From an uncultured Gammaproteobacteria bacterium (GTDB taxonomy: Bacteria > Patescibacteriota > Patescibacteriia > 2-01-FULL-39-33): a DNA stretch of 64,000 bases. The stretch is from contig CAZNIV010000002.1 in assembly GCA_964573235.1 (NCBI GenBank), positions 6,102 to 70,101 of the forward strand, read 5' to 3'. Numbering within the stretch: position 1 is the stretch's first letter; each line of letters opens with the position of its first letter. Made by a program: the position numbers and the translations under genes. A model generated the notes under the pieces. That model saw only the letters and a list, made by a program, of their open reading frames with translations. It searched no databases and was not told where the DNA came from. Positions 14,670 to 56,337 of the stretch are shown here, piece after piece.

Positions 14670-15590
14670 TTACTGTTGATAATTCGCTTTATTTTTTTCT
14701 AACTGCTGAGTAAAGATTGTTTTTATATCAGCGTCAGAAATTTGCGATAACATATTGGCGTCGGCGCCTTGACTCAACATTAACTGGCGAATTTGCGGGC
14801 CAGTTAATTTAGCTAAATCATCAATGGATTTAATAGCGCTTAAATCAACAGAACTACCATTAAAGCTGGTTGAACTTGAAACATTAACCGAACTAGTACT
14901 TGAGCTATTTTGCATCTGCTTATTTGCTTCGATCATATTTTGATAAGTGGTCATTAGGTCAGTATCAGAAATTTGCGCCAAAACCTCAACCGAAGCGCCA
15001 CCCTGTTGCAATAATTGCCTTAACATACTAGGAGTAGCTTGACCAGAAGTAATTTGTTCTGGACTAAAGCCTAAGCTATTTGTTGGAGCATCTTGCAATG
15101 TTGGCACCGAAACCGATTGGGCAACATCAGCCCCAGAAACTACCACGCCTTTGCAATTTTCACCCAAACAATTTGGATCAACACCCAAGGCAATAGATTT
15201 TTTATCATCAATACCATCACCATTACTATCTTTTAAGTAAGGGCTAGTTTTATAAACATTAATTTCATCATAATCATTTAAGCCATCCATGTCAGTATCT
15301 TTACCCTGTTGCTCAACATTAACCGCTAGTTGATTTTTCAACTGTTCACTAGTGATTTCTTTTTGCACCATAGGGGTAACTCGGGACCAAGTTGGCTTGC
15401 TAATATTGTAATATGAAGAAAAAAAGCCATAAAAAATTGCTACCACACCCACTAGCATCAAAGTAATTGTAGCTAATTTTTCACCCTTTGGTTTGTGCGC
15501 CAAAAAACCCCTTTTGACCCTTTGGTCAACCGAGTTTTGTTCATTAGAATCTTCGACAAACTTAGAATCTAAATTGTTCTCACCTTCCAT
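14670..15590 (-). CDS. Membrane-anchored protein with thrombospondin-type-3/dockerin-like calcium-binding motifs and two copies of a ~55-aa C-terminal repeat
   Basis: One TM helix (LATITLMLVGVVAIFYGFF); DTDMDGLNDYDE and DSNGDGIDD motifs; repeated LAQISDTDLMTTYQNMIE / LSQISDADIKTIFTQQLE modules. Sits 8 nt upstream of the giant gene. Confidence 0.55.
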   Translation of the reverse strand: MEGENNLDSKFVEDSNEQNSVDQRVKRGFLAHKPKGEKLATITLMLVGVVAIFYGFFSSYYNISKPTWSRVTPMVQKEITSEQLKNQLAVNVEQQGKDTDMDGLNDYDEINVYKTSPYLKDSNGDGIDDKKSIALGVDPNCLGENCKGVVVSGADVAQSVSVPTLQDAPTNSLGFSPEQITSGQATPSMLRQLLQQGGASVEVLAQISDTDLMTTYQNMIEANKQMQNSSSTSSVNVSSSTSFNGSSVDLSAIKSIDDLAKLTGPQIRQLMLSQGADANMLSQISDADIKTIFTQQLEKNKANYQQ

Positions 15591-17722: not shown

Positions 17723-18724
17723 TTATTTTTTTATCTTTTTAACTAACTGATATAAATTATACCAAAAAATTCCATAACCTGTCTCATACGCACCAACATA
17801 ATCAGTAAATTTGGCATTTTCCGCAAAGCCCTGTTTAAATCTAGTTACGCCCGGCCACTTAACTTCATCCACGCCCCAAAAATCATAATATTTTTTACCT
17901 TGGGCTTTAGCTTTTAAAATTGTTTGCCATTGCAACAAATAAGGCGCCATTTTTTGGCGATATTCATAATCAGAAGCCCCGTGTAAATACACACACCAAT
18001 CATTTAAATTAATCACCAAATTGGCCGTCACTACTTTATTATCAATTTTGGCCACTACTACTTCTAAAATATTTTTAACGGATAAAACAGCTACCATTTT
18101 TTGATAATATTCTCCGCCATGGGCCATAAATTCATCACGCTCAGCTGTTAATTTAATCAAGCGTAAAAAATCAGCCAAATATTCAGCGCCGGAATGAATA
18201 GTTACGCCACTCTTTTGCGCCACTTTAATATTGTAGCGGGTCTTAGCTTTCATTTGAGATAGAAGCGCCTCTTCGTTTAGCGTCAAATCCAAAATCAAAG
18301 TTTGTTTCGGTTGAATCATATTGATTTTTTTATAACCAAAATCAGTCAACTCTATGGCGTCTATAAACCAAGCCGGATCCAACCGCGTTAAGATAGCTTT
18401 TTCTTTTACTGCCAAAGATTTTAATTCCGCCAAAAAAAATTTTAGCACTTCCTTTTGTTTTTCTATTTCCAACCCCGCCAATAAGATTGGTCCGCGAGGA
18501 ATGTAAAAATAAGTTTTGCCAAAAACCAATGGATTAACTATTGCCTGAGCGACTAATACTATTTTATCTCCGTCCATCACGCCAATTCTAAAAACTTTTC
18601 GCCCTAAAGCGATTTGTAAATCTCCCCATGACGCATTTTGTAACAAACCAAAATCTCCAGCCTGAGTTTTTACAAACTCCTGCCACTGATTAAGCTCAGC
18701 ATCATTAAAATATTTAATCGTCAT
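17723..18724 (-). CDS. FemAB-family peptidoglycan interpeptide-bridge aminoacyltransferase-like protein
   Basis: YLHGASD...APYLLQWQTILKAKAQGKKYYDFWGV region matches the conserved FemAB/GNAT-like C-terminal motif. Confidence 0.6.
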   Translation of the reverse strand: MTIKYFNDAELNQWQEFVKTQAGDFGLLQNASWGDLQIALGRKVFRIGVMDGDKIVLVAQAIVNPLVFGKTYFYIPRGPILLAGLEIEKQKEVLKFFLAELKSLAVKEKAILTRLDPAWFIDAIELTDFGYKKINMIQPKQTLILDLTLNEEALLSQMKAKTRYNIKVAQKSGVTIHSGAEYLADFLRLIKLTAERDEFMAHGGEYYQKMVAVLSVKNILEVVVAKIDNKVVTANLVINLNDWCVYLHGASDYEYRQKMAPYLLQWQTILKAKAQGKKYYDFWGVDEVKWPGVTRFKQGFAENAKFTDYVGAYETGYGIFWYNLYQLVKKIKK

Positions 18725-21700
18725 TAAATTACAAAACTAATCAAACGCCCCGGTACAAAAATAATTTTCTTAATTTCCGCTCCAGCTAAATACTGTTTAA
18801 TCCGCTCATCTTTTTTAGCTGCTACCACCGCCTCTGCTTCAGAGATTTCTACCGGCAATTCTAACTTAGCACGCACCTTACCATTAACTTGAATGGCAAA
18901 TTGAGCCGTTTTCTTGCTTACCTTATTAACATCATAAACTGGCCACTTTTCTTGATTAATACTGGCCTTGTAGCCTAAATTCTGCCACAACTCTTCGGAT
19001 AAATGAGGCGCAAATGGCGACAACATCACCGCCTCTGCTTCAGAGATTTCTACCGGCAATTCTAACTTAGCACGCACCTTACCATTAACTTGAATGGCAA
19101 ATTGAGCCGTTTTCTTGCTTACCTTATTAACATCATAAACTGGCCACTTTTCTTGATTAATACTGGCCTTGTAGCCTAAATTCTGCCACAACTCTTCGGA
19201 TAAATGAGGCGCAAATGGCGACAACATCACCAAAAATTGTTCCGACATGTCTTTGGTAAACGCTTTTACCTCTTGAATGCGATTAACTAAAATCATCATC
19301 GTAGAAATAGCGGTATTAAAACCCATTGTTTCAACATCACTACCCACTTTCATCACGGTTTGATTAAACAAGATTTCTGTTTCTTCATCAACTTGTTCCA
19401 CGATTTTTATTTCACCACTAGTATACACCGCCCAAACTTTTTCTAAAAATCTCTTTAAACCTACCATGCCTTTAGTGCTCCAAGGCTTAGCATCTTCTAA
19501 TGGACCCATGAACATTTCATACAATCTAAAAACATCCGCGCCATATTCACGCAAAATATCATCAGGATTAACCACATTGCCACGCGACTTACTCATCTTC
19601 TCGCCATCTTCACCTAAAATCAAACCTTGATTAACTAATTTTACAAACGGTTCTTCTTGAGGTACATAACCTAAGTCAAATAACACCATGTTCCAGAATC
19701 TGGCATACAATAAATGTAACACCGCATGCTCGGCACCGCCCAAATAAACATCTACCGGCAACCAATATTTTAATTTTTCCGCCGAAGCAAATTCATTCGG
19801 ATTTTTAGAATCAATATAGCGCAACCAATACCAAGAAGATCCGGCCCATTGAGGCATAGTATTGGTTTCGCGCTGGGCCTTGCCACCACAAACTGGGCAT
19901 TTTACTTCTACCCATTCTTTAATGTTCACCAATGGTGATTCACCGGTACCTGATGGTTCATATTTTTCTACCATCGGCAAAGTTAATGGCAATTCGGATT
20001 CTGGTACTGGCACAATACCGGTATTTTTGCTACGCAAAACTAGCTCCAATAATTCTGGGGTAACTGGATTATTAAAATGACCAAAACCATGCCAAACTTT
20101 AAACATCCAACCAGCTGGAATATTCTCATGCGTCTTACGACTAATCCACGGATCATCGTCAGACAAAATAATATTTTTATCCTCCACTAAATTGCTCACT
20201 TTTTCCCAACTAAAATCTGTTTCCCAAATTTTCTTCAATGATTCAACGTCGGAATTTGGCCATTGCTCTTTAAGCCACTGCCAATCGCGCTCGTTACGCT
20301 CACCAATTGCCGAGGCAATCAAATAAACATGGCCGATTTTTTTATTCGCCTGCTCAATTAAATGTAACGCCGCCTTACTACCCAGACTGTGGCCAATAAC
20401 CACATCATTAGCGCCCATTTTTTGCATATAAGGCTCAAGCGCCTTTAACCAATCAGCTAAAACCGGGTGCTCGCTATTTGGCATATCAGGCGCAAATACC
20501 TCATAGCCATTCTTTTCTAATTCCTGCTTTAAATATGGAAACCAGTTATTACTACCATTGCCCTCAAAACCATGAATCAACAACGCTTTTTGTTTTTGTT
20601 TTTTGCAATAATCACAATGAATTAACGGCATCGGTTCACCCCAATAACGCTGGCGAGAAAATACCCAGTCACGCAATTTATAGTTAACTGCCATCTTGCC
20701 TAAGTTATTAGCTTCTAGCCAGGTAATCATTTTTTTGATGGCATCTTTAGGCAATAACCCATTTAAAAAATCAGAATTAACCATTTTACCAGAGTCAATA
20801 TCCGTAAAGGCTTCGTTGGTAATATCGCCACCGCTAATTACCTCAATAATTGGCAAATCAAATTTCTTCGCAAAAGCATAATCGCGTTCATCATGCGCCG
20901 GCACTGCCATAATCGCGCCCGTACCGTAAGTACTCAAAACATAATCCGAAATCCAAATAGGAATCTCGGTATCATTGACCGGATTAATCGCTTTTATACC
21001 CTCAAGTTCTACGCCAGTCTTATCTTTATTTAATTCTGTACGCTCTAAATCAGATTTATTTTTAGCTTCCGTCGCATACCTAGTTACTTCGGCAAAATTA
21101 GTAATTTTATCTTTTAATTTTTGCACTAATTCATGCTCTGGTGATAACACCATATAAGTCGCACCAAACAAAGTATCTGGGCGAGTGGTATAAACCACGA
21201 TATCAGCCAACTCATCACCATCTTGCGCTACTTTAAAAGTCACTTCGGCGCCTTCACTGCGACCAATCCAATTACGTTGCAAGGTTTTGATTGATTCCGG
21301 CCAATTCATTTGCTCTAAACCACTCAATAAGCGATCGGCATAAGCAGTAATGCGTAACATCCATTGGCGCAAGTTCTTTCTTTCTACGACCGTGCCACAA
21401 CGCTCACATTTGCCATTAACCACCTCTTCGTTGGCCAAGCCAGTTTTACAAGATGGGCAGAAATTAATTGGCACAAAAGCTTCATATGCCAAACCTTTTT
21501 TAAATAACTGTAAAAAAATCCATTGCGTCCATTTATAATATTCCGGATCGGTCGTATCTACTTCACGCTCCCAATCATAAGAAAAACCCAAACTCTTAAT
21601 TTGCTTTCTGAAAGTATTAACATTGCTTTGAGTAGTCACACTCGGATGTGTACCAGTTTTAATCGCATAATTTTCTGCTGGTAAACCAAAAGCGTCCCAA

Positions 21701-21936
21701 CCCATCGGATGTAAAACATTAAACCCCTTTAATCTCCAATAACGAGAAAAAATATCGGTCGCTGTATAACCTTCTGGATGACCAACATGCAAACCCATAC
21801 CTGATGGATAAGGAAACATATCCAAAATATATTTCTTGGGTTTGGTGGAAAAATCTTCAGCTTTAAAAGTTTTATTATCTTCCCAGAACTTCTGCCATTT
21901 TGGCTCAATTTCACTAGGGTTATACTTAGCGTTCAT
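18724..21936 (-). CDS. leuS: Leucine--tRNA ligase carrying a ~195-aa YdeN/RBBP9-like serine-hydrolase insertion and a duplicated 67-aa C-terminal segment
   Basis: HVGHPEGY (HIGH) motif, CP1 editing domain, KMSKS, C-terminal domain. Insert runs from about 20020 to 20604; tandem duplication at 18826..19227. Confidence 0.9.
18826..19227. repeat. Perfect tandem duplication, 2 x 201 bp, in frame inside the leuS 3' region
   Basis: Unit 18826-19026 is identical to 19027-19227 in the displayed sequence; the protein shows [67 protein letters not shown] twice. Confidence 0.85.
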
Positions 21937-22022
21937 AAACGGGCGATAAATATGATTTAAACAAGGTTAATTTAACATAAAATTGGGTTTTTTTCAATTA
22001 AAACGAAACGAAAGCGCTAGTA

Positions 22023-22051
22023 TTGACAATTTAGCCAAATTAAACTAAGAT
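22023..22051 (+). promoter_or_regulatory. Sigma70-type promoter for island A gene 1 (TTGACA-17-TAAGAT)
   Basis: -35 at 22023-22028, 17-nt spacer, -10 at 22046-22051. Confidence 0.5.
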
Positions 22052-22110
22052 ATTCCTCACGTACATTACAGCGAATTAACGCCAACCAACCGGAAAGGAT
22101 ACATGAGTGT

Positions 22111-22491
22111 ATGTGTAAAAACGCACTTTTGTTTCTCTTTTCCCTGATTCTGATTTTTTCGTGGTTTTCTGCGGTAATTGCGACAAAAGTGATTCCGAGC
22201 CAATCCGGCACTGTCACTTTCGTTCAATCCAGCGACCACGAGCTGAAATTTACCCCGTATTTTCCCAAATCGGAGCGTGACCCTCAACCGTCACTCGCCG
22301 TTTTGCCAGAAGAACCGGTAAAAATCAACAAAATCAGACACCTTCCACCAAGCAAAATCGCGTACAAAGCGAAAACTTGGGCGGATGAAAACAGGGAAAT
22401 TCCAGGGTTTTTGACTCTGCCGGGCCCGGCACGCAACAAAGATCCGTGTTGCCAAGAGGCACGGAAACTTGTAGTCTCGACACGGACCTAG
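22111..22491 (+). CDS. Island A gene 1: secreted 126-aa protein of unknown function (GC-rich, foreign codon usage)
   Basis: Signal-peptide-like N-terminus MCKNALLFLFSLILIFSWFSAVIA; GGAAAGGA SD at 22092-22099; CTG/CCG/GCG-rich codons unlike flanking host genes; terminator follows. Confidence 0.5.
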   Translation: MCKNALLFLFSLILIFSWFSAVIATKVIPSQSGTVTFVQSSDHELKFTPYFPKSERDPQPSLAVLPEEPVKINKIRHLPPSKIAYKAKTWADENREIPGFLTLPGPARNKDPCCQEARKLVVSTRT

Positions 22492-22520
22492 CAGAGAAAA
22501 ACAAGAGTCTGTGCCTCTCC

Positions 22521-22546
22521 AGCGCCATAACATGGCGCTTTTTTAT
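22521..22546 (+). terminator. Intrinsic terminator after island A gene 1
   Basis: 8-bp stem agcgccat/atggcgct with 3-nt loop, followed by TTTTTTATTT. Confidence 0.6.
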
Positions 22547-22591
22547 TTGTCTAAATTTAAACAATTTAATTGATTTTAAAACCAAAATATA

Positions 22592-22620
22592 TTGACAACA
22601 TAACTTTTATGTGGTATAAT
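22592..22620 (+). promoter_or_regulatory. Perfect-consensus sigma70 promoter for island A gene 2 (TTGACA-17-TATAAT)
   Basis: -35 at 22592-22597, -10 at 22615-22620. Confidence 0.65.
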
Positions 22621-22663
22621 ACAGAAGTCGTACATTTAACCGCAACCTCAACTGGAGGATCTC

Positions 22664-22768
22664 ATGAAAGACCTCGTCTTTGTGCTGGCCGTCGGAGTGA
22701 TCTTCGTTTTCATCAAAATCATGAAAGTGCTCCTTGGTGAAAACAAGCAGGCGAAAAAACCCGCTTGA
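22664..22768 (+). CDS. Island A gene 2: 34-aa hydrophobic single-helix peptide MKDLVFVLAVGVIFVFIKIMKVLLGENKQAKKPA (type-I-toxin-like or small membrane peptide)
   Basis: GGAGGA SD at 22654-22659, 4 nt before the ATG; GC-rich codons; sits between the consensus promoter and the terminator. Confidence 0.55.
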   Translation: MKDLVFVLAVGVIFVFIKIMKVLLGENKQAKKPA

Positions 22769-22794
22769 ACACCTCAACCGCCACCACAACCAAA

Positions 22795-22823
22795 AGGCCC
22801 CCGCTGATCACGGAGGCCTTTTA
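22795..22823 (+). terminator. Intrinsic terminator after island A gene 2
   Basis: ggcccccg / cggaggcc stem with palindromic loop tgatca, then a T-run. Confidence 0.6.
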
Positions 22824-22867
22824 ACTTTTATCCTATTTTATAATGTAATATATAAAATTTAGCAAAA

Positions 22868-23266
22868 CTATTTAACAATATAACTACATTTATTCTCGCT
22901 GCAAATAGCACTCAACTTATCCGATGCATCATCTAAATAATATTGGCACACACCACACGCGATACCATTTTCACATTTCTTTCTCTCTAAAGAATCCCAA
23001 TAAGTAACATACTTTTTATTTATTACCTCCAGACAACCACAGCACTCTTTAGAATCAGCGAATGCGCAATCTTCCTTAGTAACACAAGAAAGCAACTCTT
23101 CGCGATCTTTTGGTATCAAATAACCCACGGGCACTTTAGATGAATCTATTTGCTTGCCAGTCATTTGAGTGGGGATACCATTATTTATTATTAAAAAATA
23201 AGTAATCACACCGACTAAAACAATAATAATAGCGCTCAAAATTAAAACTAAACTTTTTTGCTTCAT
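22868..23266 (-). CDS. Small membrane-anchored cysteine-rich protein (host)
   Basis: 132 aa; N-terminal TM (LVLILSAIIIVLVGVITYFLII) then about 10 Cys; AT-rich codons. Confidence 0.5.
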   Translation of the reverse strand: MKQKSLVLILSAIIIVLVGVITYFLIINNGIPTQMTGKQIDSSKVPVGYLIPKDREELLSCVTKEDCAFADSKECCGCLEVINKKYVTYWDSLERKKCENGIACGVCQYYLDDASDKLSAICSENKCSYIVK

Positions 23267-23334: not shown

Positions 23335-26187
23335 CTACTTTATACTCAATAATTTCTTTAAATACTGACCGGTATAACTATCCTTAACTTTCGCCACATC
23401 CATTGGTGTACCCGAAGCTACTAACTTACCACCAGCCACGCCACCTTCGGGACCTAAATCAATAATCCAATCCGCCGCCTTAATCACATCTAAATTATGT
23501 TCGATCACTAAAATTGAATTACCTTTATCCACCAAGCGATGTAACACTTGCAACAAACGACTAATATCATCAAAATGTAAACCGGTCGTTGGCTCATCCA
23601 AAATATATAAGGTCTTACCTGTTGGACGACGAGATAACTCGGTCGCCAACTTAACTCTTTGCGCTTCACCACCAGATAAAGTAGTCGCACTTTGGCCTAA
23701 ACGCAAGTAACCCAAGCCCACCTCTTCTAAAATCGATAATTTATCAATTACCTGAGGCTCATCAGCAAAAAACTTCTTCGCTTCCGCCACCGACATATCC
23801 AAAACATCGGCAATATTTTTATCTTTATAATGAATTTCTAAGGCATCCTGATTATAGCGCTTGCCATGACATGCTTCACACTCGACAAATACATCAGGCA
23901 AAAATTGCATTTCAATTTTTACATAACCATCGCCGGAACAATTTTCACAACGGCCACCACCTTTAACATTAAAGCTAAAATGACCTTGTTTAAAACCACG
24001 CATTTTACTTTCTGGTAACTCAGCATACAAATCACGAATGTAAGTGAATACACCAGTATAAGTGGCAGGATTAGAGCGAGGAGTGCGACCAATTGGCGAC
24101 TGATCAATGTCAATTACCTTGTCTAAATTTTCTAAACCACGCACTTCTTTATGTTTGCCTGGCAAATCACGAGTACGATAAAACCTATTAGACAAAACTT
24201 TAGTTAAAATTTCACTCATTAAGGTAGATTTACCAGAGCCAGAAACGCCCGTGACGCAAACCAATTTACCTAACGGAATTTTAACATCAATATTCTTTAA
24301 ATTATGTTCCGTGGCACCAATAATTTCAATGTTTTTACCATTACCTTGGCGATAAGACTTGGGCAAAGGAATACATTTTTTGCCGGATAAATATTGACCA
24401 GTTAAAGATTTTTTATCATTTTTTACTTCTTCAAAAGTGCCTTCAGAAACTACTTCGCCACCTAAGCTGCCCGCCCCTGGGCCAATATCAATTACATGAT
24501 CAGCTGATTGCATCATTTGTTCATCGTGCTCTACCACAATTACCGAATTGCCCTTATCTCGCAAGCGTTTTAACGCTTCAATTAACTTAGCAGTATCGCG
24601 CGCATGCAAGCCGATTGAAGGTTCATCAAGCACATAAGTAACTGATTCCAAACCGGAACCAATTTGCGTGGCTAATCTAATTCTTTGCGATTCACCACCG
24701 GCTAAAGTATTAGCACTGCGAGACAAAGTTAAATAATTCAAACCGACTTGTTGTAAAAAGATTAAACGCTTATCTACTTCTTTAATAATTTGTTTAGCAA
24801 TCTTGCCTTCACGCGATTCGCTCTTCCACTTTCTAGATAATTCATCAAATAATTTAGCCAAACTATCAATATCCAAATCAGTCATATCAGCAATCGACAA
24901 ATTATTGATTTTAATCGCCAAACTTTCTGGACGCAATTTGCGACCTTGGCAAGTGGGACAGGTAGAAACACGCATGTATTCCTCAAGAGTTTTCTGCATG
25001 TATTCACTCTTGGCTTCTAAATATTTTTCATTCAAAAATTCAATCACGCCCGGAAATTTTACCGTTGTACCTTCAACCACATATTCTTCTTGACCAGTAC
25101 CTTTCATAATCAATTCAAAAACTTTGTCGGATAATTCCGCCACCGGCACATTCAAACTAAATTTATATTTTTTCGCCACCACCTCTAACAACTTCATGTT
25201 GCTATTTTGAGAAGAAAAATTTCTGGACCAAGGCTTAATCGCGCCTTCGGCTAAAGTTAAACGCTTATTGGGAATAATTAATTCCGGATCCGGAATTAAA
25301 CGCGTACCTAAACCACGGCAAGCCGGACAAGCGCCAAAAGAAGAATTAAAAGAAAAAGAATGCGGTTCAATCTCCGGCAAGCTTATGCCACAATTGCGAC
25401 AAACATAATATAAATTAAAATTATGTTCTTGATTAGTTTCTGGCAAAAAGATATTAATAAATCCGTTACCAAAATCCAATGCTAAGTTAATCGTTTTTTC
25501 TAAGCGTTGCCAATTAACATCTTCTACTTTTTTGGCTTTAGTTTCTGAAGTCAGCGTAACAGTATCCACTAAAATTTCAATAGTATGACTAATATTTTTA
25601 TCAATCTCTAATTTTTTTGCTTCCGTAATATTATAAAAATTGCCATCGATGCGTAACAGTTCGTAATTAGCTTTATCGATCGCTTCAATTTGTTTAGTGT
25701 GAGAACCTTTTTTATTCATGACTACTGGCGCCAAGATTTGCATTTTCACGCCTTCCTTCCAGGTAGTAATCGTATCTAAAATTTGCTTTGGAGTTTGACG
25801 CTCTACTTTTTGCCCACATTTATGACAAAATACTTCGCCGATGCGCGCATAAAGCAAGCGCAAATAATCATAAATTTCTGTGACTGTACCCACAGTAGAG
25901 CGTGGATTAACCGAAGATGATTTTTGATCAATGGCAATGGTTGGCGATAAACCATCGATACTATCGACATCTGGCTTATCCATCAAATCTAAAAATTGCT
26001 TAGCATAAGAAGATAAGCTTTCGGCGTAGCGTCTTTGCCCTTCAGCATACAGCGTATCAAAAGCTAACGAAGACTTGCCAGAACCAGACAAACCAGTGAT
26101 AACCACCAATTTATTTTTGGGGATTTCTAGCGAAACATTTTTTAAATTATTAACTCGCGCACCCTTGATCGTGATCTTATCGGTCAT
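23335..26187 (-). CDS. uvrA: Excinuclease ABC subunit A
   Basis: Two ABC ATPase modules ([14 protein letters not shown]; [10 protein letters not shown]), zinc-finger Cys clusters, 950 aa. Confidence 0.95.
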
Positions 26188-26369: not shown

Positions 26370-26930
26370 TTATCTGGATTTAACGAGCAATTCTCCGGCT
26401 TTGATGGGTGGGTCTTCTTTGAGCCCTGCATCATGCCGAAAACGCCCATAAATATCAGTGACTTTGGCATCAGTGATATCACTCTGCCCACAACGCTGAC
26501 AGCGACTACTGGCATTTGCTAAATTAATAGCCATTTGCCAATAGCGCTCTTTACTTGCCTCCTCTTGTGCCGTTACCGCCCAAACCTTTTGGCGATTATA
26601 AACAACACAAGCAACAACCACGGCCAACATCATAGCGGTAAACGTCATGCCCACTAAGTGACGATGATGTCGCACCCAGCGCTTGGCTAACACCCAAGTG
26701 ACAACCGTCGGGTAAGCCACCATCAGAGTTAAGACTACCGGCCAAGCCAATAAGTCTTTAAACCGAATCAACGACTGGTTGCACTGAAGCTTTTTTTCGT
26801 TTTGCCGATGATTGCCCCAGCATTTTTGCATGTAATCCAGCTGAGTCGCGCTAACAATATGGTTATCTACGCGATCAGTTGGCACTGTGTCACTGCTCCA
26901 CGGGACAAAGGGGTGACAGATTTTCATCAT
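26370..26930 (-). CDS. Island B: 186-aa protein with two TM helices and a Cys/His-containing C-terminal domain, unknown function
   Basis: AAGGAGGA SD at 26945..26938, 7 nt before the ATG; GC-rich E. coli-like codons; TM segments WPVVLTLMVAYPTVVTWVL and LVGMTFTAMMLAVVVACVV. Confidence 0.55.
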   Translation of the reverse strand: MMKICHPFVPWSSDTVPTDRVDNHIVSATQLDYMQKCWGNHRQNEKKLQCNQSLIRFKDLLAWPVVLTLMVAYPTVVTWVLAKRWVRHHRHLVGMTFTAMMLAVVVACVVYNRQKVWAVTAQEEASKERYWQMAINLANASSRCQRCGQSDITDAKVTDIYGRFRHDAGLKEDPPIKAGELLVKSR

Positions 26931-28550: not shown

Positions 28551-29135
28551 TTATTTGACGCAGGAGAAATGAACACTGCCCGCGGTGTCCATGGAGATAC
28601 CCATGTGGTTGATCTCCTCCAACTTGTAGCAATCAGCCGTCCGGGAATGGGACGGGTTAATGGTGATCGAGCGATCCGGGTTGTCGAAAACATGGACAAA
28701 CTCGAACACTCGCTCCATGATCGCCTGGATGGCAACTTCCGCCTCCTTGCTCAGCTGAACGGGTTCACCGTCAGCAAAGTTCAGATACAGAAAGCTCATG
28801 TGATCTCCGGCCTTCTTGATGATGTTGGTGCCAATCAGGTTGAACCCGATCGCCTTCATCTCGGCCATAATGCGATCGAACGAAATCATCGTCCAACCCG
28901 TGGGCCCCCAACCAGTGCGGGGCTTGCCGGAATCAGCCTGGCGATTGCCGGCCGCGTCCGTGCGATTGCCACGGAACGCATCCTTGCCAAGCTGCTCGGC
29001 CTGAAACGCGTGATTCTCGATGATCTCGCGCTGTTTGGCCTGACTCAGCACGGCCTTGGCGATACCACCAACCTTGCGAAGCTCTTCAGCGGCGGAGTCG
29101 GCAATACGGACACGAATCAGAATTTTGGTAACCAT
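28551..29135 (-). CDS. Island C gene 1 (194 aa), unknown function
   Basis: AGGAGA SD; its own consensus promoter; strongly GC3-biased codons (ctg, cgt, gcc, ggc, atc, aag). The overlapping plus-strand 225-aa ORF is rejected. Confidence 0.65.
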   Translation of the reverse strand: MVTKILIRVRIADSAAEELRKVGGIAKAVLSQAKQREIIENHAFQAEQLGKDAFRGNRTDAAGNRQADSGKPRTGWGPTGWTMISFDRIMAEMKAIGFNLIGTNIIKKAGDHMSFLYLNFADGEPVQLSKEAEVAIQAIMERVFEFVHVFDNPDRSITINPSHSRTADCYKLEEINHMGISMDTAGSVHFSCVK

Positions 29136-29242: not shown

Positions 29243-29334
29243 TACATTTGACCTTATTTTACCCTATTTTAGCTATTTTAAACCAAATTTAGCCAAAATA
29301 AAAAGCCCCACTTATTGCAGGGCGTAAAGATTAC

Positions 29335-29820
29335 TTAGCCTCGATGACTCAGAACAATCTGGCCATCGATAACGTGCATATCCAAGTAAGCACGCTTTTT
29401 GACCGGGCAATCCAAGCGATTGCTCGAGCCAGTTAAACGCAACACGGTTAGTTCGGGCTGTTCCTTGACGGCAAACACCTCAGCCAGGTGGCGATATTCC
29501 ACTAATTGCCGACGCAATACATAACCCACCATCTCGGGAATGCCACTGCTTTTCTCTTCGCTTATATCCACGGCCAGCCAAAGACTTTTGCCATCGGCTC
29601 CCTTCCAGAACCAAAAAGTCTGGAGTTTTAGGTTACAACTATTAAGGGCGCTGATAGCTTCCCCAATAAAGATATTTTTCCGTCCGCCCATCTCCCAACC
29701 CTTGACCAAAACGCGGGTCTGAGTGGGAATGGGATTGACCGATTGTGGCACCAGACCAGAATCCAGCAACTTTCTTGCCAAGTCTGGTAACAGACACACT
29801 CTGATTTGAATTGTTTGCAT
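29335..29820 (-). CDS. Island C gene 2 (161 aa), unknown function
   Basis: AAGGAG SD 6 nt before the ATG; GC-rich codons; no dedicated promoter, sits downstream of an attenuator hairpin. Confidence 0.6.
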   Translation of the reverse strand: MQTIQIRVCLLPDLARKLLDSGLVPQSVNPIPTQTRVLVKGWEMGGRKNIFIGEAISALNSCNLKLQTFWFWKGADGKSLWLAVDISEEKSSGIPEMVGYVLRRQLVEYRHLAEVFAVKEQPELTVLRLTGSSNRLDCPVKKRAYLDMHVIDGQIVLSHRG

Positions 29821-29888: not shown

Positions 29889-30395
29889 CTAGCGACAGAT
29901 TATCTCCAACAGACCAGATGTATCGTCGCGACTGACCACAAAGGTGAACAAGTGGCCATCAAACTTGTGATCGGGAATGGGATTAGCCGCCTTGATTTGC
30001 ATTACCATGTCCGGATTTTCCGAATCATTCGCATTGCTAAAGGCGATAACACTTTCAAACACATGATCATTCAGCCAGTTGCGAATGAACTCCATCTGCA
30101 GGGGGCGTTTCGAGTTGCGACGAGTGAACTCCAACCGCAGATAACGCCGATGCGCTTCTTCGGTTAGTCCCACTTCGGTCAAGCGAAGCGCAACCGAGTC
30201 AACATCTTCCAGTAACCCCGCCAAACTGACACCATGGACGGTGTTCTTGGCGCCATTGATGCCGTGCTGGGTACCGACGAGACGCATCTTCGCCTTGTCG
30301 ACCGTAATGCCAATCTCTTGACAGCGATCATGCGCCGCCAAAGTAAGACCAACAAAGATAGTCAACACCTCTTCCTGCTCTCTTCTCTTTGGCAT
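29889..30395 (-). CDS. Island C gene 3 (168 aa), unknown function
   Basis: AAAGGGAGGAA SD 7 nt before the ATG; GC-rich codons. Confidence 0.6.
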   Translation of the reverse strand: MPKRREQEEVLTIFVGLTLAAHDRCQEIGITVDKAKMRLVGTQHGINGAKNTVHGVSLAGLLEDVDSVALRLTEVGLTEEAHRRYLRLEFTRRNSKRPLQMEFIRNWLNDHVFESVIAFSNANDSENPDMVMQIKAANPIPDHKFDGHLFTFVVSRDDTSGLLEIICR

Positions 30396-37955: not shown

Positions 37956-38039
37956 GCCGAAATGGTGAAATTGGCAGACACGCAACGTTCAGGTCGTTGT
38001 GGGCTCACGCTCGTGAGGGTTCAACTCCCTCTTTCGGCA
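37956..38039 (+). tRNA. tRNA-Leu (anticodon CAG), no encoded CCA
   Basis: 7-bp acceptor stem gccgaaa/tttcggc, anticodon loop ttCAGgt, long variable arm, T-arm agggTTCAACTccct. Confidence 0.8.
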
Positions 38040-45913: not shown

Positions 45914-46201
45914 TCAGATATGGACCGCTACGGAGCGACCGTGAAGATGCTCCTCGCGCTTCTTGAACTCTTTGGCACACTTGTCATTGCAAACATGGCC
46001 GATATGCACGTCGATTGACCGCACCGGAATGCGGTAATGACCATGCGGATCCTTGTCGCTCAGCGGATTCAAGCACAGCAGACACTGTTCGGGGATCTCG
46101 ACCTGCGGCCGGTGATGCTCAGCCGAAATTTCCGGCGGAATCATCGTCGCAACATCGTCACCTTGAACACCCGCACCGCCCGTCCCTGTTGATCCTCCCA
46201 T
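45914..46201 (-). CDS. Island D: 95-aa Gly-rich N-terminus plus Cys/His-rich putative zinc-ribbon protein, unknown function
   Basis: AGGAGG SD 7 nt before the ATG; CxxC...HxH...HIGHVCNDKC pattern; GC-rich codons. Confidence 0.55.
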   Translation of the reverse strand: MGGSTGTGGAGVQGDDVATMIPPEISAEHHRPQVEIPEQCLLCLNPLSDKDPHGHYRIPVRSIDVHIGHVCNDKCAKEFKKREEHLHGRSVAVHI

Positions 46202-49201: not shown

Positions 49202-50155
49202 TCAATTCACACCGACCAAATCCTCTTTGTTTATCACAGCAATTTGCCAATTGTGACAAAACTTAAATTGAATGTCATTAGAGCAACAATTAAACTCCTC
49301 CATAATCAGGCGAATTACCACATTATGCGTTAACCGCATCAACGCATCCAAGCGGTTATTGCGACTGGAAAAAATATCCCAGTCTGTCGTCATCTGTTGA
49401 CGTCGCCAAATCTTCACTCCCTCCGCGCTATCCTCAACATTATCCGGCCAGTAATCCTGACGGACCTGATCGAAAAAATGTGTCAATGAATAGAGTTGCT
49501 TAATCGGCTCAGAAATAACCACTCCCAAAACCGAGTCACGCGAACTGGCCGCCGGAAACCGATCACCCAAAGAGCTTTTGATTTTTGAGCGACCGGTAAT
49601 GATTTCTTCTACACAACGGAAGTAATCATTTAGGAAATGATAGCCCGACCTAAACATCAGTGGCAATTGCTCATCGAAATCAGCGGCCACAATAACATGC
49701 CAGCCGTAGCAGATGTCCCACTCGCTGGCCGGATAAGCCAACAATGGGTGCTGAGAAATAATCGACTCATCAAACATGTCGGCAATGATATTCAAGCACT
49801 CATCTTCCGCCTTCAAAAAACTGAGAAACTCAAGCTTTTTTTCGGGCGGCAGAATAGCTGCGTGAGCGATATCAATCGGGCCACTGGGAACAATTCCCGC
49901 ATTCAAGCCATAATCGGCCACCATACAATCCTTCATGAAAAGCCGTTTTTGCCTTTCATAATATTTCTCCGCCAACTGGTAAAGATACCACCAGCGCTTT
50001 GGCCCATCGCCATTAACCACACCCCAAACTCGGCTATTTTCTTCCACCTCGTCTTCATTCGGCTCAATACCGGAAAACTTTCTGAGCGGAACCTTATCCT
50101 TAAAACCTAAGCGTAAAACTTCGCTCAAACGAAGGGGTTTCATTTTGTAGCTCAT
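49202..50155 (-). CDS. Island E gene 1 (317 aa), unknown function
   Basis: Start MSYKMKPLRL with AAGGAGGA SD 5 nt upstream; the track ORF is over-extended to 50212. GC-rich codons. Confidence 0.6.
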   Translation of the reverse strand: MSYKMKPLRLSEVLRLGFKDKVPLRKFSGIEPNEDEVEENSRVWGVVNGDGPKRWWYLYQLAEKYYERQKRLFMKDCMVADYGLNAGIVPSGPIDIAHAAILPPEKKLEFLSFLKAEDECLNIIADMFDESIISQHPLLAYPASEWDICYGWHVIVAADFDEQLPLMFRSGYHFLNDYFRCVEEIITGRSKIKSSLGDRFPAASSRDSVLGVVISEPIKQLYSLTHFFDQVRQDYWPDNVEDSAEGVKIWRRQQMTTDWDIFSSRNNRLDALMRLTHNVVIRLIMEEFNCCSNDIQFKFCHNWQIAVINKEDLVGVN

Positions 50156-50218
50156 AACTTCCTCCTTGGGTTGTTTGGTTGCTATTTTTACTGACTTTTT
50201 TATAAAGAACACCCCTTT

Positions 50219-50307: not shown

Positions 50308-51273
50308 TTAGTGGGCGAACTTTTTGATGGTAACCACTTGCCACCCTTGACGCAACCCAATAACTCTGGGGCAATTGGCACCGACGGCATCGCGCATCGC
50401 GATTTCGTTCAGGCCATTAACAAGATTGATCATCTCGTTGACTCTGGCAAACTGATCATCCAGAAACCGCGCCCGATCAACCGTTTGCTTGCCCATCCAA
50501 ACATCGAAGGCAAGTTTATTGTTTATGTTGTCGGGAACAATCCCGCTGGCATATTCTCCGATGCGCTCCAGCAACAGACACAGCCGCGGAATAATCGGAT
50601 CATCAACTTCGCAAAGCACCGTTTCTTCGTCGCCAACTGGCGGGAGATTAAAACCATGGGCTTTGGCGACAATCAGGTCGGAGCTATCAGAGAAAATCTC
50701 CGTCAGTCGAGCGAACAAATCGCCGACATACTCGCTCTTGGGAATGGGCTCATAATCCATTTTCCTGGCAACGGCAACACACCAGCCGTTAGTGATTTGC
50801 GGTATGGCTTCCTGGCAAGCCGTGATCGGGAATTCCGAGTGCACCGCCTCCCAAAAAAGAGCGCGCCACAATGAAGCCTGAGACCTGGCATGGATAACCG
50901 CCTCGTAAAGCTGTTTGGCCTTTGGATCGGTTTCAACGACACTCTTAACCTTGCCCGCCCCTTGACTCACCTCTTCCAGGTCAATCGCGAGCATCATCTG
51001 GTCTTGGGAAAATTGACACATCGTGATACCCTGACCAAAACCAGGAGCACCCGACATGTTCCGGCGGAGAAGCTCCACCAGTTCCTTGTGACCGTTATTC
51101 GCTTCGTCGATTTTCTTATCAACCAGCGCCAAAATGGCCTGGCCGATCGGATTTTTCATCGTACCGATCACGACACGACCATCTTCCAGTTCTCCATTCG
51201 GCTCAAAGCCAGAAACCGGTACTTGGCCAGAAAAAATCCGGCACAACAATTCACTCGTTCCGCGACGATTCAT
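50308..51273 (-). CDS. Island E gene 2 (321 aa), unknown function
   Basis: Start MNRRGTSELL with AAGGAGA SD 7 nt upstream; the track start at 51279 is a GTG. GC-rich codons. Confidence 0.6.
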   Translation of the reverse strand: MNRRGTSELLCRIFSGQVPVSGFEPNGELEDGRVVIGTMKNPIGQAILALVDKKIDEANNGHKELVELLRRNMSGAPGFGQGITMCQFSQDQMMLAIDLEEVSQGAGKVKSVVETDPKAKQLYEAVIHARSQASLWRALFWEAVHSEFPITACQEAIPQITNGWCVAVARKMDYEPIPKSEYVGDLFARLTEIFSDSSDLIVAKAHGFNLPPVGDEETVLCEVDDPIIPRLCLLLERIGEYASGIVPDNINNKLAFDVWMGKQTVDRARFLDDQFARVNEMINLVNGLNEIAMRDAVGANCPRVIGLRQGWQVVTIKKFAH

Positions 51274-51332
51274 GGTCACTTCTCCTTATGCTTTCTTGGT
51301 TGACTAACATTTTATACAAAGAACGACTCATA

Positions 51333-53304: not shown

Positions 53305-53377
53305 AAATTTTTATCTCCATCCCGCCCTACTGGCGGGATTTTTTGTGCCTAATTTAGATAAATTATACCTAAAGCTA

Positions 53378-53406: not shown

Positions 53407-53560
53407 CCAGAGTCGTCACAGTGACGATTTTAGATATAATTGTTCCTTTCATTTTTATTTGAAATTAACAAGCCGGGTGGTTTGTTGATGATAGGATAGG
53501 GGCATGTCGCCCGCAGTATCTGGAAAAGTAGGCCCAAAAGGCCAAAGGAGGAGAGTTCCC

Positions 53561-54343
53561 ATGAATACGACAAACACAAACCCCGCCACCGTCACCGTCG
53601 CCAAGGGATTGATCGAGTTCAACTCGACAGTCTTGGCAGGAATCGTTTTCCGCAAGGAAGACAAGCCGGCCATCAAAGAAGCAACCGAGAAAGTCGCCAA
53701 CGGGCAGTTTCTGGTTCCGCCGGACAACTCCGACGAGCTCCAGCAAATCGGCATCAGTGATGCCAGCCAGAGCGAGAATCTGCTCGAGTTGCAGAAGGAA
53801 CTCATCAAGCTGGTGAAAACTGGCAAAATGGGTCCGATATGCTTGACTCCGGCTGTTCCCCAGACCACCGTGACCGATGTTCGCATGGAAAACGGCGTAG
53901 TCAAGCGCGAGTTCCCCTCGCACTTGGGTCTGCCGGTTATCGTGGCACAGAACGGCCGCAAGGAGTTTCTCCAGCCCCGCTGGTGGTACATTGGTGCTGA
54001 GATCGGTACCGATCTCGTTCCCAGGTTCACCTGCTGGCAGTACGTCGCCACCCTCGACCGGGAAACTGGTCAGTGGTGCTGGAAGCCGGTTCTGGATGAT
54101 CGTGGCGAACATCGTTGCGCCATGGCAACCGGCGATCGGGTAAAACATTTGGTCGGAGCGAGCTGGAGCCATATGGACCACTTCGTGGTTCCGTTGGTGA
54201 ACAAAGCACGCGAATTGGCCAAGAAGGAAGCTAAGGCGAGCACCATTGTCGCCGCTGCCTTCACCCCGCCCAAGCCCCGGCCCCTCGGCACCATCGGCGA
54301 CGCCATGGCCGCCAAGTCCAAAGGCGCCCACCAGGCCGCCTAA
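53561..54343 (+). CDS. Island F (260 aa), unknown function
   Basis: AAGGAGGAGAG SD before ATG 53561 (the track start 53504 is in frame upstream); GC-rich codons; Ala/Lys/Pro-rich C-terminal tail. Confidence 0.6.
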   Translation: MNTTNTNPATVTVAKGLIEFNSTVLAGIVFRKEDKPAIKEATEKVANGQFLVPPDNSDELQQIGISDASQSENLLELQKELIKLVKTGKMGPICLTPAVPQTTVTDVRMENGVVKREFPSHLGLPVIVAQNGRKEFLQPRWWYIGAEIGTDLVPRFTCWQYVATLDRETGQWCWKPVLDDRGEHRCAMATGDRVKHLVGASWSHMDHFVVPLVNKARELAKKEAKASTIVAAAFTPPKPRPLGTIGDAMAAKSKGAHQAA

Positions 54344-54452: not shown

Positions 54453-55586
54453 TTAAACTTTTTCAAAAATATGAATGCGTCTTTGCACTTTCTGCCCTTC
54501 ACGCTTATACAATAAAGTATTGTCATCAATACGCCTAAAACCCATTTCTTGCACTTCTTCGTCAATTTTAATGGCTACGCGACCTTCAGTTACTTGCCAT
54601 TCAGGAAACACCATCACCACTTTGCCACCCGGATTTAAAATTTTAATAAATTCCTTAAATGCATCAACATAAAGCTTTAATAAATCATGAGCAATCTTTT
54701 GCGCTTCACGCAACTGAGGTACGCCACGCATTGGTGGCCCTAAAAATGGCTCAGTCACAATCGCCTGAATATTTTGCACCCGACTGCTAATCTGACGCAC
54801 ATCAGCGCTCAAAACTTCGTAATTAGCATCGGTTAAACCAAACTCATCTTTAACCCAAGCCAAATTAGTTAAAGTGTCTTTATAAGCGCGATCAGAAATA
54901 TCAGCACCAATCACTTTGCGATAACCCATAGCCATCGCTTCCATTAAAACTGTACCAGAACCGCAAAACGGATCCAAAATTGTATCATCATCATCTTCTA
55001 AGCAAGCTAAGTTGATCATCATCTTACAAAGTTTTGGTGGTAACATGCCGCTTTTAGCATCGGCCGCTGGGCGACCAAAATCTTTAAAACCATATTCTTC
55101 AAAATCCTGTACTGCCTCAGTTACCCCAAGGTAACCAGGGAACACCAAAAAGTCAGTCACTTTTTCTTTAGTTACAATAACTGAAGATAAAGTTTTTTGT
55201 TTACTCACTACTAAACGACTAGAAATATCTTTTTCTTTTAAAGCGTTTTTTACTTCCATACCAATCTTGCGATTTTCTGGCACACCGTAAAAACTAAAAC
55301 CAAATTTAGCCTTACCACCAATATTGCGCGTCATAATTTCTTCAACAATCACCGGCACCTCTAGGGTTTCGCCCAAAACTCGGCCAATCTTAATCGTGCC
55401 ACCTAATTGCTGAATTAAGCCTTTAGGTTCGATATTTTCAGTTTCTACCACTAAAAAATCTTTGCCCTCCGCTAATGACTTAACATTTGTTAAAACAGAA
55501 TAAATTTCGGCCTTAGATAACTCTGGATTATTGCCCAAAATAAAGATAAATTTCATAGTCTTACTTATTTCTAATGGCTTTATCAT
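54453..55586 (-). CDS. SAM-dependent RNA (m2G-type) methyltransferase, Trm11/RlmL-like
   Basis: DPFCGSGT motif I and EPFLGPP motif IV; N-terminal substrate-binding domain. Confidence 0.6.
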   Translation of the reverse strand: MIKPLEISKTMKFIFILGNNPELSKAEIYSVLTNVKSLAEGKDFLVVETENIEPKGLIQQLGGTIKIGRVLGETLEVPVIVEEIMTRNIGGKAKFGFSFYGVPENRKIGMEVKNALKEKDISSRLVVSKQKTLSSVIVTKEKVTDFLVFPGYLGVTEAVQDFEEYGFKDFGRPAADAKSGMLPPKLCKMMINLACLEDDDDTILDPFCGSGTVLMEAMAMGYRKVIGADISDRAYKDTLTNLAWVKDEFGLTDANYEVLSADVRQISSRVQNIQAIVTEPFLGPPMRGVPQLREAQKIAHDLLKLYVDAFKEFIKILNPGGKVVMVFPEWQVTEGRVAIKIDEEVQEMGFRRIDDNTLLYKREGQKVQRRIHIFEKV

Positions 55587-55821
55587 AGCAAAAATAAGCT
55601 AAAAGCGCCACCCTTGATCTTTTTGTTTATTTATGCTATCATTATCTCACTTTAAAAACACCTTTCCCACCTGCGCTAGTCGCGGGAGTATCTTCCGGAA
55701 AACGGAAGAAAAGGCAATTTTCTCAAAAGTCATTTTTGGCCGGATCACGCTTTCGGCGAAAAATATAAAACCTTGAGGCTTGCCTTGAGGTTTTTTAAGT
55801 TTTAATTAACTATACCCGAGT

Positions 55822-56337
55822 ATGAACAATTATGAATTGCTCTACATCGTCTCCAACCAATACACCGAAAAGGAATTGGTAACCATCCAGGAGAAAGTCA
55901 ACGCTTTGATTACCAAGCTTGGCGGCCAAGTGCACTACAAAGATTTCATGGGCAAGAAAAAACTTGCTTATCCAATCGATAAAATGTTACATGGCTATTA
56001 CACTGTTTGTGAATTTGAAATCACCGACAACAACAATGTCAAAGAATTAAGTGAAAACTTAAGATTAGACAAAGAAGTCTTACGCCATATCATCATTGCT
56101 AAGGCTAAAATCACCCCTGATGAAATTAAGAAAAAAGAAGAAATGAAAAAGCGCGAAGAAGCTGATGAAAGAGAAGCTTCCCGCCCAGTTGCTCGTGAAC
56201 GCCGTTTTGAAGATAAAGAAACTCCAACACCTACTCCAGTAACTGAAGAAAAAGTTGAAGAAAAGAAAGCTAAAGTTAAAACTAAAGCTTTAGATGAGAA
56301 ACTTGATGAAATTTTAAAGGAAGACACTGTCGTCTAA
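55822..56337 (+). CDS. rpsF: 30S ribosomal protein S6 with an acidic/lysine-rich C-terminal extension
   Basis: MNNYELLYIV... S6 fold; extension of about 70 aa. Confidence 0.9.
   Translation: MNNYELLYIVSNQYTEKELVTIQEKVNALITKLGGQVHYKDFMGKKKLAYPIDKMLHGYYTVCEFEITDNNNVKELSENLRLDKEVLRHIIIAKAKITPDEIKKKEEMKKREEADEREASRPVARERRFEDKETPTPTPVTEEKVEEKKAKVKTKALDEKLDEILKEDTVV

Follow-up and report, generated by a model that had tools for sequence, protein, structure and literature searches.

The DNA between the uvrA and leuS genes of a Patescibacteria (CPR) genome contains a GC-rich unit bounded by a predicted promoter and terminator, which raises the question of whether its transcript is the mRNA of a small exported protein or the product of a structured RNA gene. 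The preliminary description of the locus favored the former, a secreted protein of 126 amino acids (aa), and kept the latter as a hedge. We analyzed the unit in the context of the whole stretch of DNA in which it lies (64,000 nucleotides, hereafter the window; Table 1), and the evidence set out below indicates that it is probably an orphan, moron-like, horizontally acquired cassette, whose highly structured mRNA encodes a small disordered protein, exported or anchored in the membrane.

Table 1. Features of the unit and of its surroundings, in positions of the window.
Feature	Position	Strand	Details
Sigma-70-type promoter	22023–22051	+	TTGACA (22023–22028), 17-nt spacer, TAAGAT (22046–22051); 10/12 match
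Near-palindromic motif AATTTAGCCAAATT	22027–22042		Within promoter spacer
Predicted transcription start	~22058	+	Placed at the usual ~7 nt past the -10 box
5' UTR, ~53 nt	22058–22110	+	CGTACATT (22060–22067); C/A-rich leader CGCCAACCAACC (22080–22091); weak Shine-Dalgarno sequence (22092–22099)
Overlapping 14-codon upstream ORF, other frame	22103–22147	+	ATG 22103, TGA 22145; 3 nt past Shine-Dalgarno sequence
ORF, 126 codons + TAG	22111–22491	+	Predicted product 14.2 kDa, pI 9.4
Codons 1–24, MCKNALLFLFSLILIFSWFSAVIA	22111–22182	+	Predicted Sec signal peptide or uncleaved N-terminal membrane anchor
U-rich 5' strand in signal-peptide codons	22139–22166	+	Pairs with three downstream segments, closes main multi-branch domain
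Long-range helices	22139–22146/22392–22399; 22149–22157/22330–22338; 22158–22166/22234–22242	+	Perfect, 8, 9, and 9 bp; p 0.85–0.94
Two internal hairpin domains	22244–22327 and 22344–22385	+	Component helices p 0.81–1.00
Long 3' hairpin (11+5+4 bp)	22455–22518	+	p 0.95–0.99; loop region contains stop TAG 22489–22491
Intrinsic terminator	22521–22546	+	8-bp G+C-rich stem, 3-nt loop, T-run
Second unit of island A	~22592–22830	Opposite to uvrA/leuS	Perfect TTGACA-17-TATAAT, GGAGGA Shine-Dalgarno sequence, 34-aa hydrophobic ORF, terminator
GC-rich islands	~22.1–22.8, 26.3–26.9, 28.5–30.4, 45.9–46.3, 49.2–51.3, 53.4–54.4 kb

Judged by LeuRS homologs, the genome belongs to the Patescibacteria and lies close to the Buchananbacteria and Komeilibacteria. 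Full-length identity to the nearest LeuRS is no more than ~60%, and the matches listed for a contig search with the LeuRS N-terminus were all remote LeuRS genes (≤68% identity). Three family-level relatives carry uvrA and leuS on one strand, with a gap of 87 nt (L088) or with unrelated genes in between (L089 and L091), and none of the three has the unit. Here, the same spot is occupied by orf132 and two GC-rich units on the opposite strand, the second of which follows the unit under study within island A. Because the relatives have uvrA beside leuS or other genes between the two, island A is a lineage-specific insertion and, judged by this gene order, not a conserved housekeeping locus. The absence of the unit from relatives likewise argues against a conserved housekeeping RNA.

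The limits drawn in the preliminary description were reproduced. The promoter TTGACA-17-TAAGAT is present, and matches of this quality are as common in shuffled sequence (7 at ≥9/12 vs 6.2 expected from shuffles, 2 kb), so it is credible through its placement, ~60 nt 5' of the 126-codon ORF and back to back with the leuS promoter region, and not through its score. The terminator, described as clean, consists of AGCGCCAT-AAC-ATGGCGCT followed by TTTTTTATTT, with a stem of -11.4 kcal/mol, and ranks best among the 3 terminator-like sites within 2 kb (1.3 expected). The GC-rich transcript, put at about 490 nt, would extend over ~22058–22546 (489 nt), with a GC content of about 0.47–0.48 vs ~0.37 in the surrounding genes (0.34–0.39 in orf132, leuS, and uvrA; 0.34–0.40 in ordinary genes of the window). 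These transcription limits, and the activity of the promoter and terminator, are predictions from sequence.

The motif AATTTAGCCAAATT within the promoter spacer is possibly an operator or a recombination scar. Allowing up to 3 mismatches, it occurs 23 times in the window (12.0 ± 3.5 in shuffles), with further copies beside island units (22543–22557, 22856–22870, 29286–29300, and 53350–53365); it lies at unit edges in three islands, and an inverted copy stands right after the terminator of the unit studied here. The unit is flanked by a 17-nt inverted repeat (22028–22044/22541–22557). We rejected a MITE-like reading of this repeat, which comes without a target-site duplication and has its left arm inside the promoter.

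The unit has company in the window, which contains at least 10 GC-rich orphan genes. Most share a layout of consensus or near-consensus promoter, C/A-rich leader, Shine-Dalgarno (SD) sequence, ATG, GC-rich orphan ORF, and terminator, with the promoter and terminator checked directly for some of the units. The other island ORFs are clearly coding, as judged by strong 3-base periodicity and good frame-specific codon scores (leave-one-out). Comparison of the island ORFs with one another by blastp connected only o336 and o323, distant paralogs of 336 and 323 aa. The island proteins tested had no relatives in the collections searched, none of the island ORFs matched PHROGs, and a profile of the o336/o323 paralogs retrieved itself only from the protein database and nothing from viral contigs. 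The 5' regions of units 1 and 2 of island A resemble each other in architecture and in the short CGTACATT word; the word alone is not significant (3 matches vs 1.6 expected), and MAFFT alignment did not bring the shared elements into register. The ORF of the second unit (22664–22768) fits type I toxins in size and hydrophobicity better than the 126-codon ORF does.

In agreement with the preliminary description, the longest ORF of the unit encodes 126 aa, and its predicted product includes the peptides VIPSQSGTVTFVQSSDHELK, DPQPSLAVLPEEPVK, and EIPGFLTLPGPAR. Were the unit instead a structured noncoding RNA gene of ~490 nt, the ORF would have arisen by chance in GC-rich sequence poor in stops, and the U-rich tract in its first codons would serve base pairing. 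This would require three coincidences. Of 40,000 dinucleotide shuffles of the transcript, 1.7% contain an ORF of at least 126 codons (p = 0.017). The codon log-odds of the ORF, computed with a model built from the other GC-rich island genes, are +0.096 vs -0.069 ± 0.081 for chance ORFs of at least 100 codons (p = 0.016). Finally, a signal-peptide-like pattern, scored by the crude criteria of positive charge in the n-region, a hydrophobic core free of charges, and small residues at -3 and -1, appears in 0.4% of local shuffles, which cover the first 30 codons and keep local U-richness, and in 1.8% of stop-free shuffles (p = 0.018). The three tests are roughly independent, and a chance ORF is jointly very unlikely; a novel structured RNA is expected to carry no protein-coding signal, and here length, codon usage, and the signal-peptide tests favor coding. 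The ORF frame also scores best of the three in all 11 sliding 25-codon windows, with no frame switch along the 126 codons. Within the island set, it has the lowest codon score and is the sole ORF in which 3-base periodicity was absent (S/N 1.35, p = 0.19), a point in favor of an RNA gene that we did not take as decisive because the frame-specific codon scores are positive. Absent periodicity, a weak or occluded SD sequence, and no homologs are as expected for a gene that is young or weakly translated, short, and disordered in its product.

The N-terminus has the makings of an export signal. Its n-region carries Lys3 within MCKN and no acidic residue in the first 7, and the h-region (residues 5–24, ALLFLFSLILIFSWFSAVIA) is uninterrupted over 20 residues, with a maximum 15-residue hydropathy of 2.57. 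By inspection, V-I-A before Thr25 agrees with the -3/-1 rule, and the hydrophobic core is also long enough for an uncleaved membrane anchor. The lipoprotein lipobox L-[AS]-[GA]-C was not found: there is no Cys past the hydrophobic core, and the sole N-terminal Cys is residue 2. AlphaFold, run with no alignment, predicts a helix at residues 3–27 (pLDDT ~90) and disorder elsewhere (pLDDT ~50–55), as would suit a basic, disordered tail behind an export signal or membrane anchor. Beyond residue 24, the product is basic and abounds in Pro (13 of 102 residues), Lys, Ser, and Thr, in keeping with the Pro-rich mature part noted previously. The CC pair that was said to end this part is present, but at residues 113–114, 12 before the C-terminus. 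From these features, we infer translation, Sec export, and cleavage after Ala24. A type I toxin (<~60 aa, hydrophobic, with an antisense antitoxin) was considered and rejected for this ORF, given its 126 codons, its hydrophilic 102-residue tail, and no antisense promoter seen. Of the 2 readings offered at the outset, the primary one, a small protein with an N-terminal export signal, is computationally the better supported, through ORF length, codon usage, the N-terminus, and the AlphaFold helix.

The start region speaks less clearly. The SD sequence, GGAAAGGA, stands 11 nt before the ATG, and the same order of C/A-rich leader and SD precedes other island ORFs. Its duplex energy of -5.4 kcal/mol bears out the remark that it is weaker than in the other islands, where values run from -5.6 to -12 kcal/mol, with host genes at about -0.5. 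Across the window, the SD duplexes of all ten island genes lie between -5.4 and -12 kcal/mol, vs a mean of -0.46 kcal/mol for 37 ORFs of host GC content, almost none of which has an SD sequence. Since 15% to 26% of GC-rich island sequence windows contain an SD as strong as that of the unit, it is little evidence for translation. In the fold ensemble, its G residues are paired (p ~0.9), and the region from -30 to +32 around the start folds at -17.1 kcal/mol, the most stable among 18 genes compared; the start codon itself is largely unpaired in the predicted fold, beside a stable hairpin. The upstream ORF is probably not used, because the spacing between the SD sequence and its ATG is too short.

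A weak, paired SD sequence is a further point for a noncoding RNA, and it also bears on whether the unit is an inert or decaying passenger, a donor gene that is poorly or not translated here and has no function. Such a passenger would account for the weakest coding statistics and SD sequence of all island units and for the most occluded start region; host genes are without SD sequences, so that SD-dependent foreign genes may be badly expressed, and the gene is a strict orphan limited to one population. We nevertheless consider a passenger quite unlikely, as the frame is intact over 126 codons without sign of a frameshift, the promoter and terminator are intact, and the unit, found on 7 contigs from several assemblies and samples, is in all of them 100% identical to the window. 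The source lake samples include the JGI samples 3300021520 and 3300021605. Three assemblies of the population end at 22502, within the 3' hairpin, and the protein has been annotated once, as a hypothetical protein in an NCBI MAG.

The predicted fold is another point for an RNA gene. The transcript has a minimum free energy of -159 kcal/mol, corresponding to z = -6.3 and -6.0 vs dinucleotide shuffles, compared with -3.4 for the opposite strand and a mean of -1.0 (sd 1.8) for 86 control windows. Many helices in the well-defined ensemble exceed p = 0.9, and three perfect long-range helices of 8 to 9 bp, formed by a single 5' strand, are part of it. The structure exceeds what the protein sequence needs: against synonymous-codon shuffles, which keep the protein, the transcript scored z = -4.6 and the ORF by itself about -3, and shuffles confined to 21-codon blocks (~32 nt changed) still gave z = -3.5. 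Similar values were obtained for most of the neighboring foreign genes. Among eight other island ORFs, synonymous shuffles gave z = -4.8, -4.0, -3.95, -2.7, and -1.9, with the remaining three at -1.2 to +0.55, and 21-codon-block shuffles gave -1.7 to -3.9 for five of them; thirteen host genes were near 0, with one exception at -4.2. The excess is shared by most of the other island genes, whose coding nature is clear, and is therefore no argument for an RNA gene; structure z-scores alone mislead here. The hedge of the preliminary description was thus right in that the structure lies far above shuffles, and it fails as far as a separate RNA gene is concerned, the trait being common to most island mRNAs. 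Taken together with the three coincidences that it needs, we judge a noncoding RNA gene to be decidedly improbable.

Coding signals and selected-looking structure within one transcript could also mean that the RNA does both, encoding a small exported protein and acting as a regulatory or scaffold RNA in the manner of Staphylococcus RNAIII or of SgrS. RNAIII of Staphylococcus aureus, a dual-function RNA (RNAIII/hld), is ~514 nt long, and the unit resembles it as a highly structured transcript of ~500 nt that carries an ORF. Unlike in the known dual-function small RNAs, in which a short ORF accompanies a larger noncoding body, the ORF here takes up 78% of the RNA; moreover, there is no similarity in sequence or to Rfam, and no conservation was found. 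Excess structure is also seen in island mRNAs of up to 1 kb, which suits a trait general to them, for instance stability or origin from a donor, better than a specific regulator, and a dual function strikes us as very improbable.

Searches for relatives returned nothing in favor of either type of product. At gathering thresholds, the only Rfam 15 match in the window is the tRNA-Leu at 37956–38039, and a scan of 21900–22900 at E<10 returned terminator-driven chance matches only, far below gathering scores. The families covered include RNase P, tmRNA, SRP, 6S, OLE, GOLLD, ROOL, HEARO, and raiA; together with ARAGORN, which found no tmRNA in the unit, these scans agree with the preliminary description, which had seen no tmRNA, RNase P, or SRP signatures and had proposed Rfam as a check. 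No match was found over 22060–22546, and neither nhmmer nor short-word blastn detected a paralog of the unit within the window, both of which weigh against a structured RNA gene. For the 126-aa protein, in turn, a set of about 15 billion proteins contains no relative, which leaves the RNA reading the absence of a protein homolog on its side. A word-indexed search of 5.8 billion clusters matched the protein to itself alone, an exhaustive phmmer search of 1.84 billion representatives found no homolog besides itself, and nothing was found in Pfam, NCBIfam, PHROGs, PADLOC, or PDB sequences, nothing but itself in JGI metagenome contigs, and nothing in viral contigs.

A protein-coding cassette could work as follows. 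A self-contained foreign expression cassette would sit in the variable uvrA–leuS spot of the CPR genome, with a sigma-70-type promoter presumably driving a ~490-nt transcript that ends at the intrinsic terminator. The transcript would serve as an mRNA, on which ribosomes would start at AUG 22111, aided by the weak AAGGA SD sequence. The product would be a 126-aa pre-protein, whose N-terminal 24 residues would lead it into the Sec pathway; signal peptidase I would cut after AVIA24, or the helix would stay as a membrane anchor. The basic disordered tail of ~102 residues would then lie outside the cell and would most plausibly act at the surface of a presumably host-attached bacterium, although any such surface or host-interaction role is speculative. 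Tight folding of the mRNA probably makes it long-lived and throttles translation initiation, rather than reflecting a separate RNA function.

Taken alone, the unit is one more orphan small exported protein of an uncultured bacterium, and matters little. It is, however, a worked example of a GC-rich, structured, promoter-to-terminator unit that looks like an RNA gene and is better explained as a coding cassette. The class of cassettes is more interesting than the single unit. Its context is unusual, in that a genome whose own genes are without SD sequences holds SD-led, GC-rich orphan cassettes within conserved gene order, which raises the question of how an SD-less host translates SD-dependent foreign genes. 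If expressed, the cassettes would be candidates for a lineage-specific surface or host-interaction repertoire of this CPR bacterium. In a bolder reading, the unit would belong to a class of autonomous foreign cassettes not described before, most of them with a promoter, a terminator, a C/A-rich leader, and an over-structured mRNA, and all led by an SD sequence and inserted into conserved gene order, with the transcript 22058–22546 perhaps also acting as a structured RNA; we hold this to be rather unlikely. Were such a class real, it would suggest that one particular vehicle or donor of genes, so far unsampled, lies behind it, or that accessory genes are translated under an SD-dependent regime of their own.

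Among known systems, the candidates of the GC-IGR approach, in which GC-rich intergenic stretches in AT-rich genomes flag structured RNAs, come close to the unit in appearance (PMC6429828). Like them, the unit is a long GC-rich stretch with an AT-rich genome around it, has a promoter and a terminator at its ends, and is predicted to be strongly structured, and a GC-rich segment in such a genome is a recognized signature of structured RNAs that counts toward an RNA gene (PMC6429828). The same searches also turn up short ORFs (PMC6429828), which counts against it, and the unit differs from the candidates in that its ORF carries codon-usage and signal-peptide signals and in that it has no homologs, hence no covariation, and no Rfam match.

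Phage morons are independent promoter–gene–terminator units of deviating GC content that represent extra DNA relative to related genomes (PMC3594210). The unit shares these traits, having its own sigma-70 promoter and intrinsic terminator, a GC content of 0.48 vs 0.34–0.39 in orf132, leuS, and uvrA, and a position as extra DNA that separates genes adjoining each other in relatives, and it consists of a single small accessory gene. Unlike a moron, it resides in a bacterial chromosome, between the housekeeping genes leuS and uvrA, and not in a phage or prophage; it has no PHROG match and no meaningful similarity to phages, plasmids, or viral contigs (blastn of the islands against phages and plasmids matched nothing beyond short AT-rich stretches or terminators), and no integrase was seen nearby. 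As it comes without a recognizable phage, we call the unit moron-like and not a moron. As for its product, the unit is comparable to the orphan (ORFan) secreted or anchored small proteins of Patescibacteria and other uncultured bacteria, with which it shares a hydrophobic export signal, a disordered remainder, the lack of a family, and lineage specificity, and from which it is set apart by its foreign composition, an SD sequence in an SD-less host, and an unusually structured mRNA.

Shine-Dalgarno use sharply divides the genes of the window into two sets. The ORFs of host-like GC content (n = 37) are practically devoid of a Shine-Dalgarno sequence (mean of -0.46 kcal/mol), whereas all 10 of the GC-rich orphan genes that make up the islands possess one (-5.4 to -12 kcal/mol), and most of them additionally carry a C/A-rich leader (e.g., CAACCAACC) and a promoter at or close to the consensus. 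None of the 9 island genes tested against Pfam, and none of the 8 scanned using PHROG and PADLOC, produced a match. Two adjoining island ORFs (336 and 323 aa) form a pair of distant paralogs, with 21% identity across 325 aa and a pairwise E of 8e-6; a profile of this pair retrieved no further protein from 5.8 billion clusters and nothing from viral contigs.

The mRNA structure of most island genes is well above that of synonymous-codon shuffles, which preserve the protein sequence. The z scores of fold energy ranged from -1.9 to -4.8 in 6 of the 9 island ORFs, whereas those of host genes were near 0, and the 6 island ORFs that were retested with shuffling confined to 21-codon blocks yielded z scores of -1.7 to -3.9. 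The most extreme fold z score in the window (-7.1) belongs to a 489-nt control window starting at 55501, which encompasses a structured leader of higher GC content, where a 12-bp hairpin plus T-run occupies 55767-55794. By eye, the N-terminus encoded by the ORF immediately downstream (55822-56337; synonymous-shuffle z of -4.2) looks like that of ribosomal protein S6. The leader region had no match in Rfam and may represent a ribosomal-protein leader or an attenuator.

Coordinates of the island genes, their signals, and other features of the window
Feature	Position	Strand	Remark
Island genes 1-5 of 10	22111-22491, 22664-22768, 26370-26930, 28551-29135, 29335-29820
Island genes 6-10 of 10	29889-30395, 45914-46201, 49202-50212, 50308-51279, 53504-54343
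Adjoining GC-rich orphan ORFs	49202-50212, 50308-51279	-	336 aa and 323 aa
Example island ORFs with excess mRNA structure	49202-50212, 26370-26930, 28551-29135	-
GC-richer structured leader	55640-55800	+	upstream of ORF 55822-56337
ORF of 3066 aa	5461-14661	-	host-like composition
LeuRS gene	18724-21936	-	inserted domain at residues ~452-622
AATTTAGCCAAATT(A) copies	22027-22042, 22543-22557, 22856-22870, 29286-29300, 53350-53365, 14805-14820, 24851-24865
Second unit of island A	22592-22830	+	promoter, SD, 34-aa ORF, terminator
Promoter of second unit	22592-22620	+	TTGACA-17-TATAAT, perfect, extended TG
34-aa ORF of second unit	22664-22768	+	MKDLVFVLAVGVIFVFIKIMKVLLGENKQAKKPA
Bidirectional terminator	~22792-22822		common to second unit and orf132

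The leuS gene, which borders island A, encodes a LeuRS into which an alpha/beta serine-hydrolase domain is inserted (PF06821, E = 2e-16); LeuRS proteins of related Patescibacteria contain the same domain, a NUDIX domain, or both. In the present assembly, a perfect 201-nt tandem duplication (18826-19227, - strand) adds 67 aa to the protein (1070 aa versus 1003 aa in another assembly of the same population, which has no such duplication). The repeat probably reflects either strain variation or an artefact of assembly. A family-level relative (L089) carries a gene for 3088 aa downstream of leuS, in a position similar to that of the 3066-aa ORF.

The near-palindrome AATTTAGCCAAATT(A) is enriched in the window, with 23 matches at up to 3 mismatches versus 12.0 ± 3.5 in shuffles, and its copies are found at unit edges in three islands. 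The first unit of island A is flanked by a 17-nt inverted pair (22028-22044 and 22541-22557). The motif may serve as an operator or may be the scar of a recombination event. Three assemblies of the same population stop exactly at 22502, within the 3' hairpin of this unit; they may have a common sample of origin. The NCBI MAG contig ends at 22557, directly past the terminator. These contig ends may reflect strain-level variation where the two units of island A join.

The second unit of island A has the Shine-Dalgarno sequence GGAGGA, and its short ORF displays strong 3-base periodicity. The product, a single hydrophobic helix followed by a basic tail, is similar in size and shape to small membrane peptides and type I toxins.
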